22,406 nucleotides of DNA from a virus (lineage: Duplodnaviria; Heunggongvirae; Uroviricota; Caudoviricetes): IMG/VR virus record IMGVR_UViG_2537562020_000008. One strand, given 5' to 3'. The translations under genes were made by a program, and so were the position numbers. The notes beneath the pieces were generated by a model, which saw only the letters and a program-made list of their open reading frames with translations, was not told the DNA's origin and did no database searches. Of this stretch, positions 11,065 through 22,406 are shown one piece after another; position 1 is the first letter of the stretch, and each line of letters opens with the position of its first letter.

Positions 11065-11113
11065 TGGTGCCGATAATAGGAGTCGAACCTACGACCTTCG
11101 CATTACGAATGCG
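11065..11113 (-). other. att core: 3' 49 nt of a tRNA-Thr (thrW-type, anticodon CGT) gene; the 5' half of the tRNA is not present here
   Basis: Reverse complement CGCATTCGTAATGCGAAGGTCGTAGGTTCGACTCCTATTATCGGCACCA equals the anticodon-loop-to-CCA segment of tRNA-Thr(CGT) as recalled; the sequence 5' of it is not tRNA-like. Confidence 0.8.
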
Positions 11114-11201
11114 TAAATTGATCTTGTAAAATCAATACCTATCGAATTTAAATGGATTTTTTGCCACAATATTGCCACAGTTCGTTAGGAATCAGACAGA
11201 A

Positions 11202-12275
11202 ATGGCGACTATACGCAAACGTGGTAACTACCAATGGGAAGCTCAAATCCGTAAACGTGGTTTTCCCTCTCAAACCAAAACCTTTAACACCAAAGTAGAA
11301 GCAGAAGCTTGGGCCAAAATGATCGAGTCAGAAATGGCGAGAGGAGTTTGGCTTAGCCGCAGCGAAGCGGAATCTACGACATTGTATGAAGCCCTAACGC
11401 GATATGAAAAAGAGATTGTTCCCGACAAAAAAGGGGCAGTGCAAGACCGATCATTGGTGCGGATACTAAAAGGCACTCAGCTGGCGAAAAACTATATGGC
11501 CAGCATCAGGAGTGCCGATGTCGCCAAGCTGAGAGATGAATGGTTGAAAATCTATGCTCCTGCAACCGTTTTAAGGCGTTTGGCCTTACTTTCTCATGTA
11601 TTCAATGTTTCGCGGAAAGAATGGGGCATGGAGAGCCTGCTGAACCCCGTAGAGGCCATTCGTAAACCCCAACCCAAGAACTCCAGGACCAGACGCCTAG
11701 AAGCGCTGCCTGTAGTTTCTGAGAAAACCGGTGTTACGTCAGGAAAGCAAATAGCCAACGAGATCGAACATATCATCGCCGCAACACATTCATTAGTATT
11801 GCCAGCAATCATTCTTCTGGCGTTAGAGACAGCCATGCGCCGTAGCGAAATCGCAGAGCTTCGATGGCGCTTTATCGATCTTGATCGGCGAGTTGCACAT
11901 CTGCCGGATACTAAGAATGGTAATGCCCGCGATGTCCCTTTATCAACGAAAGCCATTACGATACTGTCCAGTCTCAAGGAACATTCTAAGCCAGCTGCTG
12001 ATAAGGTTTTTGATATGCGTGCAGACGCGATTACCCGAGCTTTTGACCGAGCTGTAAAACGAGCCAGAGAACGATACGAGAAAACAAACTCATTATGTGA
12101 TGAATCTTTCCTTAAAGATTTAAGATTTCATGACCTTCGACATGAAGCAACTTCTCGACTTGCTGAAATTTTCCCTATGCATGAACTAACCAAAATTACA
12201 GGACATAAAGATCCAAGAATGCTAATGCGGTATTATCATCCAAAAGCTGAAGATTTGGCGTTAAAGTTGAAATAA
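11202..12275 (+). CDS. Second tyrosine recombinase/integrase (island integrase; a longer ORF begins at 11172)
   Basis: RBS AGGAA before the ATG at 11202; C-terminal LRFHDLRHEATSRL ... LMRYYH catalytic signature. Confidence 0.8.
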   Translation: MATIRKRGNYQWEAQIRKRGFPSQTKTFNTKVEAEAWAKMIESEMARGVWLSRSEAESTTLYEALTRYEKEIVPDKKGAVQDRSLVRILKGTQLAKNYMASIRSADVAKLRDEWLKIYAPATVLRRLALLSHVFNVSRKEWGMESLLNPVEAIRKPQPKNSRTRRLEALPVVSEKTGVTSGKQIANEIEHIIAATHSLVLPAIILLALETAMRRSEIAELRWRFIDLDRRVAHLPDTKNGNARDVPLSTKAITILSSLKEHSKPAADKVFDMRADAITRAFDRAVKRARERYEKTNSLCDESFLKDLRFHDLRHEATSRLAEIFPMHELTKITGHKDPRMLMRYYHPKAEDLALKLK

Positions 12276-13411: not shown

Positions 13412-13624
13412 CTAGTGAGCTATTTTATAGTCCCTTAATGCATTTTTAAGTAACTCCGTTTGCTCATCAGCATCATCATAATTATAAATTCCCGTAGCAG
13501 AATAATACTCTTCGATGCATAGAATATTTATCAATGGTTCACAAATCTCTTTAATAAAATCCTTGTTGTTATCGGCAAAAATAATTTTTATTCCTTCCAA
13601 AACAAAGCTATTATAATCAGCCAT
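13412..13624 (-). CDS. Hypothetical small acidic protein (70 aa)
   Basis: Strong RBS (AGGAGGTGGATAATG); acidic composition; no family recognised. Confidence 0.55.
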   Translation of the reverse strand: MADYNSFVLEGIKIIFADNNKDFIKEICEPLINILCIEEYYSATGIYNYDDADEQTELLKNALRDYKIAH

Positions 13625-13693
13625 TATCCACCTCCTTACAGGTGTTTAGTGGAAGCGTCAGTTAACGTTACCGCGCTAACTGACGCGCCTAAA

Positions 13694-15097
13694 TCAAGAT
13701 TTTTTACTGCCAGTTAAACTATCACCCTCAAACTCATCCTGTTCGTGGTTAGTCTGACGATCGGCTGTGTGTTTACGTATTTGATTCGCTATTTCCCCAC
13801 CAACGGTCTGTTGTCTTCGGATAGTATTAGTACTTCCCTTCATCATCTGATACTCCGAAGCTCCGTTAGACAGCCCGCTCGCCATGTGAGAAGCCATGCG
13901 GCCAGCTCGTGAGAATGATGAAGCAAACCCCTGGCTTCCTCCGCTGACGCTACCTGTATTACTCCCTGCAGAAGAACCACCGGAACCGCCTGATGGTTGT
14001 CCTCCAGAAGTATCTACGGAACCGGTATCTTCCCCTCCGCCAAATCCTCCACCTGAACCACCTTTATCACCAGAACCAGATTCTTCGGCCATCGCCGCTT
14101 GTGCAGATTCAAATGCTGCTTTTAGAGCGGAAGCACCACCACTGACTTGAGCTGTAGCACTTATTGCCATTGCCCCAGCGCCACTGATTGCAGTAGTAGC
14201 AGCGCCAGTAATCATACCTGCTCCAAAACCACCGATCCCTTGTAAGGACGCTCCTCCAACAACGCCTGATAACAACAACGGTAATTTATTCGTCAATACT
14301 AAAAGAATAATTGACGCCAGAAGTAAAACAATAAGACTATTAAGATCAGGAATATCATTTTTAATAATAGAAAAATACTGATCTATAAATGATTGCCCAA
14401 TCCCAATGATTAATGTCATCGTAAATAACTGAATACCAATCGATAATACTGTGCGTAAGTAATTTATTGCTATATCAGAAGTCCATTTCGAGCCACCAAA
14501 CCCAAGCAAAATAACTCCTGCATAACACAACACCCATGCAGAAACTAACATTATTAGCATATTTATCGCGATAAGCGCCATTACTACTAATACTATTATC
14601 GCGACGGTTATCATAATGGTCGAAATCATTGGAGACCAAATTGATGCTGCTGAACTGACCTTTGTTAATATCACAAATGCCATATCCACTATGCTGGAGG
14701 GTGAAATACCAGTACTTGTTCCTAAAGCATTTGCTGCAAGTTGTCTCATTGAGTTAATTATAGATTGTGATATGGCTGGGCCGTTGATTAAAAGATAATA
14801 AAAAAAACCAATCACGGCAAAAAAACGAACTATTTCTGCAAGTGCACTGATTAAACCTTCCCCTTGCATCGCCAACATACCAAATGTCCAAACCATACTT
14901 ATTAATACCAACCCCCAGAAGAGCCAATTTGCATAATCACCAATTACTAATGACCATGTGCTGGCTACTTGCTGAAACTTATCTAATAACGTATCAAGTA
15001 ATCCGCTACTATCTAATTGACCAGCATAAGCATTTACAGAAAACAAAAAAAACATTCCTAAAAAAGTGAGCTTGCTTACTATTCTCATAATTACCAT
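13694..15097 (-). CDS. trbL: TrbL/VirB6-like type IV secretion protein (polytopic, Gly/Ser-rich C-terminal tail)
   Basis: 467 aa; multiple TM segments then a low-complexity tail (GSGGGFGGGEDTGSVDTSGGQPSGGSGGSS); directly follows trbJ and a trbK-like ORF, as in P-type Tra2 clusters. Alternative start at 15088. Confidence 0.75.
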   Translation of the reverse strand: MVIMRIVSKLTFLGMFFLFSVNAYAGQLDSSGLLDTLLDKFQQVASTWSLVIGDYANWLFWGLVLISMVWTFGMLAMQGEGLISALAEIVRFFAVIGFFYYLLINGPAISQSIINSMRQLAANALGTSTGISPSSIVDMAFVILTKVSSAASIWSPMISTIMITVAIIVLVVMALIAINMLIMLVSAWVLCYAGVILLGFGGSKWTSDIAINYLRTVLSIGIQLFTMTLIIGIGQSFIDQYFSIIKNDIPDLNSLIVLLLASIILLVLTNKLPLLLSGVVGGASLQGIGGFGAGMITGAATTAISGAGAMAISATAQVSGGASALKAAFESAQAAMAEESGSGDKGGSGGGFGGGEDTGSVDTSGGQPSGGSGGSSAGSNTGSVSGGSQGFASSFSRAGRMASHMASGLSNGASEYQMMKGSTNTIRRQQTVGGEIANQIRKHTADRQTNHEQDEFEGDSLTGSKKS

Positions 15098-15264
15098 TCT
15101 CGCTTAGGGCTAGGATTGTTATTGCCACGCAGGGCACATTTATCGTAGTTATGTTCGTTCAATTTATTCTCTGGCGTCGATAAACAATCTTCATCTTTTT
15201 TATCGCAAGAGCATAGAATTAATGAAATTATTAGAATAAAAATGACCAAAAGTTTATCTTTCAT
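15091..15264 (-). CDS. trbK: TrbK-like small lipoprotein (entry exclusion), 57 aa; below the ORF-track size cutoff
   Basis: Own translation: MKDKLLVIFILIISLILCSCDKKDEDCLSTPENKLNEHNYDKCALRGNNNPSPKREW; signal peptide with lipobox-like LCSC; lies between trbJ and trbL. Confidence 0.5.
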   Translation of the reverse strand: MKDKLLVIFILIISLILCSCDKKDEDCLSTPENKLNEHNYDKCALRGNNNPSPKREW

Positions 15265-16517: not shown

Positions 16518-16584
16518 ACAGGCGGTAGCCGATCAGCCTCGCAGAGCAGGACTCCGTTGAGCAGCTCAGCTGCGAATAAGGGAA

Positions 16585-16635
16585 GGTAAAGTAGAAGCAC
16601 CGTTTACGGTGGGCCTACTTTACATATCCTGCCCT
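16585..16635. other. oriT-like site: 9-bp inverted repeat around an inner palindrome, followed by a MOBP-type nick motif ATCCTGC
   Basis: Seen directly: GTAAAGTAG-aagcaccgtttacggtgggc-CTACTTTAC then acatATCCTGCcc at 16626..16632; lies ~70 bp upstream of mobC. Confidence 0.4.
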
Positions 16636-16787
16636 ACATTTGCCGTTGTGAATCTGTGTACGTATTGTGTATTTCTGTGTACTCAGTGTGTTTTCCTAAA
16701 GCATTTGTGCAGGATTAGTAGTGTAAAAATGTGCAGCATATGTGTTTATTGGAATGGAAATTATTTGAATGCCCCTAAGAGATATTT

Positions 16788-17081
16788 TTATTCTCGCGGC
16801 TTGGGTTTTGGCGGCCTGCCACGTTTCCTTTGACATCTATTTATCTCTTTCGCTATATCGTCATTTTCTGTCTTTGACTCAACAGATTTATCTATCCAGT
16901 CCTTAACATCTTCTCTACGCCAGAGAAGACGTTTATTACCGGGAAGACGGCATCTTGGTGGAAGACATTTTGGATTTCGCGTTGCATCACTGCGGATACT
17001 TTTTACAGTTTTCTTTAATGCAAAAGCCAACTCTTCAACGGTTATAAGTTCTGGCATAACTGATTTCATCGAAGAACCCAT
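16788..17081 (-). CDS. Excisionase/AlpA-like HTH DNA-binding protein with basic AT-hook-like tail
   Basis: 97 aa; LITVEELAFALKKTVKSIRSDATRNPKCLPPRCRLPGNKRLLWRREDVKDWI is an AlpA/Xis-type HTH pattern; C-terminal RKRGRPPKPKPRE. Confidence 0.55.
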   Translation of the reverse strand: MGSSMKSVMPELITVEELAFALKKTVKSIRSDATRNPKCLPPRCRLPGNKRLLWRREDVKDWIDKSVESKTENDDIAKEINRCQRKRGRPPKPKPRE

Positions 17082-17103
17082 CTCTCAGTAGAAATTTGAG
17101 GAT

Positions 17104-17131
17104 TTTAGCGGCTAAAATTTTAGCCGCTAAA
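17104..17131. promoter_or_regulatory. Perfect 28-bp palindrome just upstream of the excisionase-like gene (operator or bidirectional hairpin)
   Basis: Seen directly: TTTAGCGGCTAAAA|TTTTAGCCGCTAAA. Confidence 0.45.
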
Positions 17132-17382
17132 GTTTGCTAACCAACGTTATGAATTGAGAATAATTAAAACTTACTGGCAAAAAGAATAATGTCAACAGGG
17201 TTTTTATTCATCGGATTCTTACTCCATATGAAATTGGTTTTATTGACCGATTTCTGAATGACACTAAGGTTTTAATAATTCCTTTAATCTTTTTGGTTAT
17301 ATAAAAGGTTAAAGATCAGGTTAGAGAGGTGTGGAAAAGCGATATATTCACTTGTTTACTATGACAATTTTAAATTATATCC

Positions 17383-17448
17383 GTACCTCAAATGTCATGA
17401 AAGCGTACCTCATATGTCATAAAGGCGTACCTCATATGTCATATAATA
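17383..17448. repeat. Three tandem copies of a 22-bp unit (GTACCTCATATGTCAT core)
   Basis: Seen directly: gtacctcaaatgtcatgaaagc / gtacctcatatgtcataaaggc / gtacctcatatgtcatataata. Confidence 0.85.
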
Positions 17449-17528
17449 AAAAATAAGCAAACAAGTTATACACAATATTATTAACAGAATCTGTGGATAA
17501 ATACACAGATTATACATGATAAAATAGA

Positions 17529-17734
17529 TTGTTTAGCTAAACTAAATAACAATAAATAAAATGAAACAAAATGTAAATAACAGGGGGGGTGTAGGTGACT
17601 TATAAATTTGGTTAGCTAACCTTTATAAGAAACACTGTTTGTAAATGATTCATTTCTGACAACGGATATATCGAATTTGAGTAAGAAAAACACTTCAACT
17701 AACCTTACTCTCTGATTTGTTTAGCTAAACAAAT
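17529..17734. promoter_or_regulatory. Three palindromes with a shared TTAGCTAA core upstream of the HigA-like gene (putative operators)
   Basis: Seen directly: ttgtttagctaaac (17529..17542), ggttagctaacc (17610..17621), atttgtttagctaaacaaat (17715..17734, perfect 20 bp). Confidence 0.5.
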
Positions 17735-17775
17735 TACTGTAAGGAATCCGATGACGTTAAAAAAAAGGGGGGGAT

Positions 17776-18033
17776 ATGAGGACAATAAATGCTGCACCTT
17801 CAACTGTCGGAGAGATTTTATACGAAGAATTCTTGAAACCATTGGATATGCCTCCCGCAAGACTTGCTGAACTGATGGATACATCATATGAAAAAATTTG
17901 GGAAATAATTAAAAATGAGCGAAATATAACTCTTGAAGAAGCTATTCAACTCTCGATAATTTTCAATACAGATGCATCTTTTTGGGTGAAACTGCAAGAG
18001 CTACATGAGGCATGGTTTAATAAACAAAAGTAA
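17776..18033 (+). CDS. HigA-like HTH (XRE-family antitoxin-type) regulator, no cognate toxin ORF detected
   Basis: 85 aa; VGEILYEEFLKPLDMPPARLAELMDTSYEKIWEIIKNERNITLEEAIQLSIIFNTDASFWVKLQ matches the HigA/VapI pattern; preceded by an A8G7 homopolymer pair. Confidence 0.65.
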   Translation: MRTINAAPSTVGEILYEEFLKPLDMPPARLAELMDTSYEKIWEIIKNERNITLEEAIQLSIIFNTDASFWVKLQELHEAWFNKQK

Positions 18034-18233
18034 GGTTATTCAATTAGATTACTTAGTACTAATACATAATTTGCTTTGAATAATACTCATACATTTCTAA
18101 CGACTTATTAAAGCGATAATATACTCGGACGACTGAGGATTAAAAAATCCGATCCTTGATGATGGGAACCTGCCATGACTAGGTAAGTCATTTTAGCAGT
18201 GGTACAGGCGACATTAAAAGCCGATATAAAGAA

Positions 18234-18266
18234 GCCCGACTGGTAAGATCGGGCCTTTTTATTTTT
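18234..18266 (+). terminator. Rho-independent terminator
   Basis: GCCCGA-ctggtaaga-TCGGGC hairpin followed by CTTTTTATTTTT. Confidence 0.6.
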
Positions 18267-18688
18267 CCACTCTGGCCTGAATAGAACATCCTACATTAGA
18301 CGTTAAGATCTTACATCTAATTATCCGAAACTACTAATGGATGCGTAGTTGCATTTGACCTGACCGCCCATTTGCGGGTTACTCTACCATCGCCAATAAA
18401 GTCCGGCTACTCGAATTCGGAAGTATTAGGCTATAGGTCATAAACCTGAATAACTGCTATGTGCTGAAGCGGATAAAGCTGACATCATTATGCACCAATC
18501 AACTCGGTGTAAGTCAGCTAGTTGGTGATGGAGTGACTTGTCAATAGTTGTAGCCCCTACCAGTGCATCGGAGATTCTTGAGTGTAACCTTAGTTGCATT
18601 AATCAGAAGTAAAGGAAACGTACTATGAAAATCAGTACTCTTAATCAAGAGATCCCCCGTTCTCTCACGGAAAAGGGGGATTGAATTT

Positions 18689-21240: not shown

Positions 21241-21918
21241 TTACATGTAGATATTCATTAAACTGTCAAATAGTCTTTTGGTTAACTCTTTTTCCGCTCG
21301 TGCTTCGATTTGAGCCATACCATTTCGGAAGAGTTTTAATTTACCGCTAAATTCTTGGTCATGAATAGTACATGTCAATCGATCAAGTCTCATTTTTTTG
21401 TGAATAAGCTCATCTTTGAAATATTTTTTAAGATCGCTGGTACTATTAATTTGCATCTTGGCAAGAGCAAATTCAGCAACTTGAATTTGAGATACATCTA
21501 GTTGCACTATATTAAGTGTCAACTCTGTGTTTAAAGAACTGAACCATATGAACGGGTCAATCTCAATCTCTTCTAAGCTGGTACCAAGACCAAGGTTTTT
21601 TACCAGTGCCTGAGCAAATGGTTTAAGTGTTCTCGGTGGATTATCAATAAGTAAAACTGGGGTGTATTGTTCGTCAAAACTGAAAGATGTTACTCTATAT
21701 TCAATGCGTTCAACAGCGGTACTGTTGCCGTATAGATTACTTATTCTATCTTCGCTAATTATCTTTTCGATGAAGCGAGCGTGAAAATGAGATGTTCGTG
21801 ATTTATCAAATATAAACCCTTTCCCTTTCTCTTCAGTAAAAGGATCACGCATGAGTTTTTCAACTGTTTCACTAGTAGTGAAACGATTGTTGAGTTTAAT
21901 CCATTTAAATTTTTTCAT
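21241..21918 (-). CDS. Hypothetical protein (225 aa), unknown function
   Basis: Long ORF with AT-rich codon usage; 4-nt gap to the upstream small ORF suggests an operon; no family recognised. Confidence 0.55.
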   Translation of the reverse strand: MKKFKWIKLNNRFTTSETVEKLMRDPFTEEKGKGFIFDKSRTSHFHARFIEKIISEDRISNLYGNSTAVERIEYRVTSFSFDEQYTPVLLIDNPPRTLKPFAQALVKNLGLGTSLEEIEIDPFIWFSSLNTELTLNIVQLDVSQIQVAEFALAKMQINSTSDLKKYFKDELIHKKMRLDRLTCTIHDQEFSGKLKLFRNGMAQIEARAEKELTKRLFDSLMNIYM

Positions 21919-21922
21919 GCTC

Positions 21923-22120
21923 TTACACCTTTTTACCCGTCACGATATTATAGGCGTCTGCTGCTGACTGTTCAATTAGTAGGCTGATTTTCTTCTTTTC
22001 AACTTCATTTGCTGCACGAATAGTAACATTGTATCCACTACCTTTTTGGTTATTGATTCCTTTAATTTGATAGGAAAAATCAGAGCAATTTTCTGAATCC
22101 TTAAAGAAAGCTTCAACCAA
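21923..22120 (-). CDS. Hypothetical small protein, possibly 5'-truncated by the adjacent IS1
   Basis: Reading frame stays open into the IS1 terminus; the first candidate start is a TTG right at the IS1 boundary. Confidence 0.35.
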   Translation of the reverse strand: MVEAFFKDSENCSDFSYQIKGINNQKGSGYNVTIRAANEVEKKKISLLIEQSAADAYNIVTGKKV

Positions 22121-22125
22121 AATCC

Positions 22126-22406
22126 GGTAGTGACTCCAACTTACTGATAGTGTTTTATGTTCAGATAATGCCCGATGACCTTGTCATGCAGCTCCACCGA
22201 TTTTGAGAACGACAGTGACTTCCGTCCCAGCCTTGCCAGATGTTGTCTCAGATTCAGATTATGTCGCTCAATGCGCTGAGTGTAACGCTTGCTGATAACG
22301 TGCAGCTTTCCCTTCAGGCGTGATTCATACAGCGGCCAGCCATCCGTCATCCATACCACGACCTCAAAGGCCGACAGCAGGCTCAGAAGACGCGCCAGTG
22401 TGGCCA
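22126..22406 (-). mobile_element. IS1 (right-end inverted repeat at 22126..22148; element continues beyond window end)
   Basis: Terminus GGTAGTGACTCCAACTTACTGAT matches the IS1 IR as recalled, followed by insB coding sequence. Confidence 0.9.
22141..22406 (-). CDS. insB: IS1 transposase InsB, C-terminal part (5' end outside window)
   Basis: ...[71 protein letters not shown] matches the IS1 InsB C-terminus. Confidence 0.9.

Follow-up and report, generated by a model that had tools for sequence, protein, structure and literature searches.

Our analysis suggests that positions 17082-17775 of this 22,406-nucleotide (nt) stretch of DNA (IMG/VR record IMGVR_UViG_2537562020_000008; hereafter the window), the spacer upstream of a HigA-family helix-turn-helix (HTH) gene, higA, probably form the interface between a helper plasmid and an integrative mobilizable island that lies beside thrW, derives from IncP-1-like conjugative plasmids and depends on them. 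The window comes from an E. coli chromosome. Its bases 1 to ~11100 are a lambdoid prophage, and the island starts at 11172 and runs rightward, ending in complete genomes at tRNA-Thr (thrW) beside proA. The interface is laid out as a cut-down IncP origin of replication (oriV) with two KorB operators on the traJ side and three KorA operators on the higA side. Because the island encodes no KorA, KorB, TrfA or relaxase, these operators and the iterons of the origin would be usable only in trans, by a co-resident IncP-like plasmid. In the mechanism that we propose, KorA of the helper plasmid would bind the three operators OA1-OA3 and shut off rightward promoters into higA. KorB would bind its operator pair, repress a leftward operon made up of an open reading frame (ORF) of 97 amino acids (aa), traJ and trbJKL, and cooperate with KorA at a distance. 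The TrfA protein of the helper would act on the iterons, either replicating the excised island or being titrated by it, and the level of HigA would report the presence of the helper.

Mobilizable islands like this one occur widely in Enterobacteriaceae and carry much of the anti-phage defence repertoire. For IncP-dependent islands, letter-perfect operators of the helper's two global repressors beside helper-type iterons give a directly testable hypothesis of how the helper is detected. A locus with the look of a lone antitoxin preceded by palindromes can be the place where plasmid and island interact and not a degenerate toxin-antitoxin locus.

Operators and origin-like sequences upstream of higA

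The features of the spacer and of the genes that bound it are as follows.

16788..17081, minus strand: 97-aa ORF that opens the leftward operon; traJ, trbJ, a trbK-like gene and trbL come after it
17104-17116 and 17119-17131: tandem pair of exact KorB operators (OB1 and OB2), TTTAGCGGCTAAA and TTTAGCCGCTAAA, together a 28-bp perfect palindrome (17104-17131)
17132-17142: degenerate OA-like sequence GTTTGCTAACC, directly after the OB pair
17168..17195, minus strand: candidate leftward promoter, TTGACA-N16-TAAGTT
17270..17381: IncP-like oriV homology, with GGTTAAA-type A+T-rich repeats and a DnaA-box-like TGTGGAAAA (17330-17338)
17382..17447, minus strand: three 22-bp phased iterons, reading ATGACAT(A/T)TGAGGTACG on that strand
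17466-17474, plus strand: DnaA box TTATACACA, one mismatch
17492-17500, minus strand: DnaA box TTATCCACA, consensus and the sole perfect DnaA box in the window, inside ATCTGTG-N8-CACAGAT (17489-17510)
17531..17542: OA1, exact KorA operator GTTTAGCTAAAC
17583..17589, plus strand: first G7 run
17610..17621: OA2, GGTTAGCTAACC, a symmetric two-mismatch variant of the KorA operator
17715..17734: OA3, perfect 20-mer ATTTGTTTAGCTAAACAAAT, with an exact KorA operator inside it at 17719-17730, 57 nt upstream of the higA ATG
17759-17766 and 17767-17773, plus strand: A8 and G7, a length-polymorphic, purine-rich tract, followed by AT and the ATG at 17776
17776..18033, plus strand: higA, HigA-family HTH gene, 85 aa, pI 4.8
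18234..18266, plus strand: intrinsic terminator GCCCGA...TCGGGC with a T-run, ending the conserved ~230-nt region 3' of higA

KorA is a global repressor of IncP-1 plasmids, and its operator, OA, is a 12-bp symmetric sequence with the consensus 5'-GTTTAGCTAAAC-3' (PMC2665229, PMC2680271). The exact 12-mer occurs twice in the window against 0.00 expected from 100 shuffles, and the TTAGCTAA core occurs four times against 0.6 expected. By their sequence OA1-OA3 are predicted KorA operators. OA2, by our reading of the 18-bp numbering in PMC2665229, keeps the four KorA-contacted bases of each half-site. Hexamers resembling -10 elements (TAAACT, TAACCT and TAAACA) overlap the three OA sites, and 16 nt upstream of each lies a hexamer of the TGAC, TGAT or TTAC type. 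The TAAACT overlapped by OA1 is at 17538-17543, and at OA2 a -35-like GTGACT lies 16 nt upstream of the -10-like TAACCT. The overlap of OA1 with a putative promoter is probably of the kind found at the IncP promoters korAp and trfAp, judging by comparison with pTA13-3, a 41-kb plasmid with a full IncP-type backbone (korA/incC/korB, trfA, and trb and tra genes). In pTA13-3 an exact OA is found at both korAp and trfAp in a TTGACx-N17-TAAACT layout, to which the hexamer pairs at the three OA sites of the island bear a resemblance, and the recognition helix of the pTA13-3 KorA, RGAVSQAV, is that of the solved RP4 KorA.

The KorB operator, OB, is the 13-bp TTTAGC(C/G)GCTAAA (PMC2680271). Its consensus, TTTAGCSGCTAAA, has two exact copies in the spacer against 0.01 expected, and the pair sits in the leader of the traJ operon. 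The candidate promoter at 17168-17195, which was read directly from the sequence and was not reported by a consensus scan, would drive transcription across the OB pair and into the 97-aa/traJ operon.

Between the two sets of operators lies a segment with the phased TrfA iterons, DnaA boxes and A+T-rich repeats of an IncP-type oriV, although a full IncP oriV would also have trfA in cis and none is present. The oriV-homologous segment extends ~75-110 bp to the left of the iterons and shares 77-80% identity with the oriV of pTA13-3-type plasmids. In sequence the iterons are identical to TrfA iterons of enterobacterial IncP-like plasmids, and they match those beside trfA in pTA13-3. Some islands have instead GGGGC-type iterons, as in the plasmid pVNCEc117, with their OA sites unchanged. 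A comparison of the window with loci L026, L031 and L040 gives two island iteron types, GAGGTAC and GAGGGGC, which match the pTA13-3-type and pVNCEc117-type plasmid groups; L026 and L031 have a fourth iteron. The oriV-like region has one perfect DnaA box and two with one mismatch. ATCTGTG-N8-CACAGAT had been noticed in the first-pass annotation of this DNA as part of a regulator's palindrome array. The repeat is present, but it holds the consensus DnaA box beside plasmid iterons, which does not support its place in such an array. An IncX/R6K-type origin, guessed from the 22-bp iteron length, was rejected, the matching plasmids being IncP-like with trfA, korA/incC/korB and trb/tra genes. In the oriV of pVNCEc117 (L037, 3735-3770), two sequences resembling OA half-sites, GTTTAGCTAcc and tGTTTAGCTGta, with an A11 run between them, lie just before a DnaA box, and such operator-like sequences and a homopolymer beside a DnaA box may be ancestral to this oriV type.

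The spacer was compared in 16 distinct versions, with loci from E. coli, Enterobacter, Erwinia and Pseudescherichia and several further contigs. Across genera, the sites keep the same order and spacing. Relative to the higA ATG, the OB pair is at ~-672/-657, the iterons extend from -393 to -349, the perfect DnaA box is at -284 (a position that it keeps across genera), and OA1, OA2 and OA3 are at -245, -166 and -57. All 12 columns of OA1 are invariant, as are 12 of the 13 columns of OB1. Most of the related loci that were checked have OA2 at -166, no such site was found in L038/L039 and L060, and OB2 and OA3 have single mismatches in some lineages. Islands with an alternative HigA allele, 47% identical and with a different recognition helix, have OA1 and OA2 exactly unchanged, and a one-mismatch OA3 (GTTTAGCTATAC) survives there in otherwise diverged sequence. 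The islands with the alternative, 104-aa HigA (L021, at 2530-2550, and L022) diverge from the window from ~17690 yet retain ATTTGTTTAGCTA, and the megablast homology therefore ends inside OA3; OA3 may mark a module-exchange junction. An 11-nt perfect inverted repeat (17208-17218/17744-17754) was rejected as a regulator site, since the other alleles give no covariation for it and its occurrence is at about chance level.

On the model that goes with the first-pass annotation, the palindromes would be the operators of HigA itself, an autoregulated orphan whose translation would be phase-varied by slippage in the A8G7 tract and which would control the HEPN genes to its right. Proteins of the HigA family, which are dimeric and have an HTH, bind palindromes, and OA3 is 57 nt from the start codon. 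This account as a whole is nevertheless highly unlikely. The exact KorA operators are accompanied by exact KorB operators and by TrfA iterons, and OA1 and OA2 are unchanged before the 47%-identical HigA with its different recognition helix. The palindromes are therefore not allele-matched HigA operators, and their persistence before the alternative allele argues that OA1-OA3 serve KorA. What holds of the earlier description is that the palindromes are non-random and conserved, as putative protein-binding sites. The palindrome, repeat and G7 features that it listed are all present, with three of them slightly displaced (17529-17542 is properly 17531-17542, 17490-17511 is 17489-17510 and 17584-17590 is 17583-17589).

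The locus could also be what is left of an IncP-like plasmid that integrated and is in decay, with operators, iterons and a toxin-less higA as functionless leftovers. Only three iterons are present, the G+C-rich part of oriV, trfA, korA, korB, a relaxase and higB are all missing, OB2 and OA3 have the mismatches just described, and IS1 copies are scattered through related islands. We consider this origin unlikely, however. At least 16 distinct sequences, drawn from several genera, share the architecture and have intact ORFs, the exact island HigA protein is indexed in 2082 blocks of an assembly collection, the switch between GGTAC and GGGGC iterons parallels two plasmid groups, and related islands that share the traJ/trbJ/trbL set are functional as mobilizable elements dependent on IncP plasmids.

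Several observations weigh against the interpretation of the spacer as a helper-plasmid interface. RK2 uses five iterons in its minimal oriV. The island has three, or four in some islands, compared with six to seven in the plasmids, and the G+C-rich block of the plasmid oriV is absent. The promoters proposed at the OA sites are weak and none was flagged by the consensus scan. OA2 and OA3 are conserved no better than some neighbouring sequence, and since the whole spacer is 91% conserved, the conservation of the sites alone is not decisive. The plasmid with the matching iterons, pTA13-3, has no higBA, and the island higA is on the opposite side of oriV from the higA of pVNCEc117. Finally, because KorA and KorB are repressors, induction by a helper would need a hypothetical extra inverting step.

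A solo higA and its homopolymer leader

The higA ORF scores 65.9 bits on the NCBIfam model TIGR02607 (HigA), above the curated cut-off of 47.7 (E 2e-18), in agreement with the first-pass recognition of an HTH gene with the HigA pattern. The best solved relatives of the protein are YbaQ (2EBY) and the HigA of P. aeruginosa (7CSV/6JPI), along with GraA. The earlier observation that no HigB-like toxin is encoded nearby is also borne out. On the plus strand, 17082-17775 contains no ORF of at least 40 aa except a 41-aa ORF over the iterons, the small ORFs flanking higA have no Pfam match, and a higB remnant upstream of higA was rejected because tblastn found no match to plasmid HigB in the window. 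The partner toxin is absent in all related loci examined, and the upstream region is the same throughout.

The island HigA shares 51% identity with the antitoxin of a complete higBA pair in the IncP plasmid pVNCEc117. There higB-higA lies directly beside oriV, in the plasmid group whose TrbJ is closest to that of the island. As in HigBA modules and orphan HigA proteins (E. coli YbaQ, PaHigA), the family model and this identity place the protein in the family. In contrast with HigBA modules, it has no partner toxin, it is 85 aa long against the 102 aa of the plasmid antitoxin, and the sequences upstream of it are operators of another protein. By analogy with related elements, higA, a conserved backbone gene, would most likely be the island's second regulator, divergent from an AlpA-like gene. 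In PIME1 elements a luxR-family regulator has the position divergent across the control region, and both flanking regulators are essential for excision in a representative element (bioRxiv 10.64898/2026.01.12.698999). As an alternative or additional role, again by analogy, higA may provide an anti-addiction antitoxin against the HigB of related IncP plasmids; toxin-less antitoxins recur in IncP-type islands. KorA operators before higA would keep the gene off with the plasmid present and on with the plasmid absent, which fits either role.

Downstream of higA, the ~230 nt to the terminator and a further ~100-200 bp (within 18034-18470) are conserved across alleles until the variable cargo begins. 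This region could be a 3' untranslated region or a recombination landing pad for cargo exchange. A structured small RNA at 18034-18275 was rejected, since only the terminator hairpin is present, covariation is weak (3/38 pairs) and no Rfam match is above threshold.

The A8G7 tract sits where the Shine-Dalgarno (SD) sequence of higA lies, two bases before the ATG, as had been noted in the first-pass annotation. In other alleles the same position reads AAAAAAAAGGAGGGGGGATG or GAAAAAAAGGGGGAGATATG, with AAGGAGGGGGG as a plain SD, and the tract is therefore an A-rich leader followed by the G-rich SD of higA. All tract states seen retain an SD that is rich in purines and lies 2-6 nt from the start codon. 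Only two runs of at least seven G are found in the whole 22.4-kb window, both in the spacer, which is 30% GC. The first, invariant in one of its seven columns, is not conserved outside the window's clade; close relatives have G6 or G8, and other alleles have G4 or an interrupted purine run.

It had been suggested that slippage could change the tract and so alter translation initiation. Variation there is: assemblies with the same or a 99%-identical protein have at least seven states (T2A8G7, T3A8G6, T2A9G6, T3A7G8, T2A7G7, T3A8G8 and CT2A8G8). By the criterion of invariant length set in the first-pass annotation, phase variation is thus not refuted. The variation is between lineages, however. 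Within the window's clade, 10 of 11 complete genomes are identical over the 151 bases of 17700-17850, and the eleventh differs by a substitution only, with its length equal. Because the length is equal in all 11 clade genomes and the tract is outside the coding frame, with an SD kept in all states, phase-variable translation is unproven and there is no sign of rapid ON/OFF switching. From the sequences compared, the A8G7 tract looks like a mutational hotspot whose length drifts between lineages rather than a demonstrated ON/OFF switch.

A second start codon, ATG 17751, has a good TAAGGA SD in the window's allele. Three tract states put it in frame with higA, which accounts for the 93-94-aa forms in databases, and the fusion counts in favour of a phase-varied higA. 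ATG 17751 as the native start, with a frameshift at A8G7, was rejected, however, because its offset is 24, 25, 26 or 27 nt depending on the allele, one allele has a TAG and most alleles lack the SD. Programmed -1 ribosomal frameshifting on A AAA AAA G was also rejected, the shift needed being +1. The tract resembles the contingency loci of Neisseria, Haemophilus and Campylobacter in being a mutable A/G homopolymer beside a start codon with several length states. It differs in being short (A8, G7), outside both the ORF and a promoter spacer, and stable in the clade, and the real start of the island higA has no ON/OFF frame logic.

Control of the HEPN genes to the right by HigA had also been proposed. 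In complete genomes with the higA region the conservation of the backbone ends at ~18360-18470, with variable cargo beyond. The cargo beside higA is interchangeable; elsewhere it includes Shedu, pPIWI, DUF4365, IteS, AbiJ-related and methylase/GmrSD genes. Because the cargo varies while higA stays, a dedicated link from HigA to the HEPN genes is unlikely.

Helper plasmids and related islands

The operators of the island correspond in several ways to the KorA-OA/KorB-OB network of RK2/RP4. Exact OA (GTTTAGCTAAAC) and exact OB, TTTAGC(C/G)GCTAAA, are each present twice, the OA sites overlap candidate -10 hexamers of TAAACT type, and the distance between OB and OA is a few hundred bp, within the range of KorB-KorA cooperation (PMC2665229, PMC2680271, PMC11790492). 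In contrast to that network, the island is chromosomal and encodes neither KorA nor KorB, its two OB sites stand in tandem in the leader of an operon, and its target is a HigA homologue and not a kor, trf or kil gene. The island has three OA sites in 200 bp, compared with two exact OA in the whole of the 41-kb pTA13-3. The TrbJ of the island is 88-94% identical to the TrbJ of these IncP-like plasmids and ~60% identical to that of a broader IncP-type set.

Within the helper-plasmid interface, it is possible, if doubtful, that the operator cluster is the island's sensor of the arrival and loss of an IncP helper, with KorA and KorB switching the higA and traJ operons through copied operators. In one version, higA would be off under KorA while the plasmid is present and on after its loss, and HigA would neutralise lingering plasmid HigB, a timed anti-addiction. 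Alternatively, HigA would be the repressor of the island, and the shut-off of higA by KorA would trigger excision. Either version, if true, would supply the helper-sensing mechanism that is listed as unknown in the PIME study (bioRxiv 10.64898/2026.01.12.698999).

The sites could also act on the helper. We put forward only tentatively, as a single proposal, that the OB pair is a centromere for IncC/KorB segregation of the excised island and that the OA, OB and iteron sequences titrate KorA, KorB and TrfA, leaving the helper derepressed or destabilised. KorB operators double as centromere sites, and the island packs five operators and three iterons into 630 bp. KorB is a ParB-family partition protein (PMC5577506, PMC13584720), SGI1 is reported to hijack the parABS system of its IncC helper in this way (PMC10954446), and a replicating PIME lowers the copy number of the IncP plasmid pB10 (bioRxiv 10.64898/2026.01.12.698999). 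On the other hand, OB in the leader of the traJ operon and OA3 just before higA look regulatory. The titration and partition roles are compatible with the helper-plasmid interface and do not exclude it.

SGI1 senses the activator AcaCD, whereas the sites in the island described here are for repressors, and the plasmid family and the proteins differ. The likeness is that of a chromosomal island without full transfer machinery that has sites for helper proteins, replaces subunits of the mating pore and has an incompatibility-like relation to its helper (PMC5704250, PMC10954446).

The kind of island is itself already known. StmGI_0323 of S. Typhimurium, at thrW, has essentially the same set of genes, namely HigA, a 97-aa ORF, TraJ, TrbJ, a 57-aa ORF, TrbL, a 70-aa ORF and a recombinase, in a gene list that was published descriptively (PMC5575072). 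Features common to this island and to GIsul2, the IncP island and PIMEs are trbJ-K-L, an oriT like that of the helper, and extensive cargo for defence or resistance (PMC5704250; bioRxiv 10.64898/2026.01.12.698999). PIMEs have been excised and mobilised experimentally by pB10 (bioRxiv 10.64898/2026.01.12.698999). Unlike PIMEs, the island has no replicase gene, carries helper-type TrfA iterons in its place, and integrates at thrW and not at guaA. A replicase of its own (repA/repC), which is a search criterion for PIMEs, is not annotated in the island; a replicase is present in the related island of E. coli HS and in GIsul2. The novelty of the present island is thus the absence of its own replicase and the presence of helper-type iterons and operators. 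In the literature that we searched we found no paper linking KorA or KorB operators to genomic islands, including GIsul2, the IncP island and PIMEs.

Similar sites are seen in other islands. The guaA island of E. coli HS (L045) has exact KorB operators and an OA-like site with one mismatch, and GIsul2 (L046) has an exact KorB operator and the TTAGCTAA core. In these two islands KorB operators are found in the 5' end of trbJ and upstream of traJ, and there are single RK2-type iterons. The HS island also has a HigA-like gene, 45% identical, followed by a PIN-domain gene.

Layout of the island, its transfer genes and cargo

From the integrase, the order of the island is a PtaRNA1 type I toxin-antitoxin locus, trbL, the gene for a 57-aa lipoprotein, trbJ, traJ, an oriT nick-like site, the 97-aa ORF, the ~700-bp spacer, higA, the terminator-bearing 3' region and the cargo. 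The remaining features of the window are as follows.

11066-11177 (L001, 12066-12177): 112-nt 'tRNA-Ser' of the RefSeq annotation, between the prophage and island integrases
11172-12275: integrase, at the left end of the island
13412-13624, minus strand: 70-aa ORF, adjoining PtaRNA1
13618-13690, plus strand: PtaRNA1 antisense RNA (Rfam 48.6 bits, gathering score 47)
15091-15264: 57-aa lipoprotein gene at the trbK (entry exclusion) position
16624..16636, plus strand: oriT nick-like ATATCCTGCCC, immediately upstream of traJ
21241-22406: PADLOC Hp3 (225 aa, E 3e-80) and the last 65 aa of Hp2, which IS1 truncates at the right end of the window

As in IncP-island, GIsul2 and PIME-type elements, there is an integrase at a tRNA, a helper-like oriT, trbJ with trbL, and a variable defence cargo, and the place of trbK is taken by the 57-aa lipoprotein, which is equivalent by position only. 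The lipoprotein has no detectable similarity to the TrbK of pTA13-3, and the flanking TrbJ is 88% identical. Its occurrence at this position recalls the exchange of pore subunits by which SGI1 escapes exclusion. The 70-aa ORF and PtaRNA1 form a pair that resembles the type I toxin-antitoxin annotated in GIsul2. ARAGORN found no tRNA in the entire window, including the 'tRNA-Ser' stretch.

The nic core of RP4 is ATCCTG|C. At the place matching the nick-like site of the island, pTA13-3 has ACATGTCCTGCCCGG. A traJ-II motif (Rfam, 93 bits, 16535-16634, minus strand) overlaps ATATCCTGCCC with its 5' end, and this motif may be conserved oriT DNA, instead of or besides an RNA leader. The 97-aa ORF is weakly AlpA/excisionase-like, on the basis of a weak pairwise similarity to the AlpA of GIsul2 (E 0.029), and has no Pfam or NCBIfam match. 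No homologues of KorA, KorB, IncC, TrfA, TrbA, TraI or HigB (by tblastn for HigB) were found in the window, no relaxase was found in the island, and no korA is annotated across the full island of strain E1316.

Matches to parts of the island backbone are found in about 300 complete E. coli genomes, and a scan of species-representative genomes with the HigA protein gave one close locus only. In the contigs encoding protein P0005 (L041-L043) no traJ was called, and the gap between trbJ and a 93-aa ORF is 320 bp (locus positions 1690-2010), so that some members of the island family may be without traJ. The cargo of the window comprises a 420-aa protein, a HEPN/MtlR-like protein, PADLOC Hp3, and Hp2 cut by IS1; strain E1316 has an intact Hp2 together with a PD-(D/E)XK gene.

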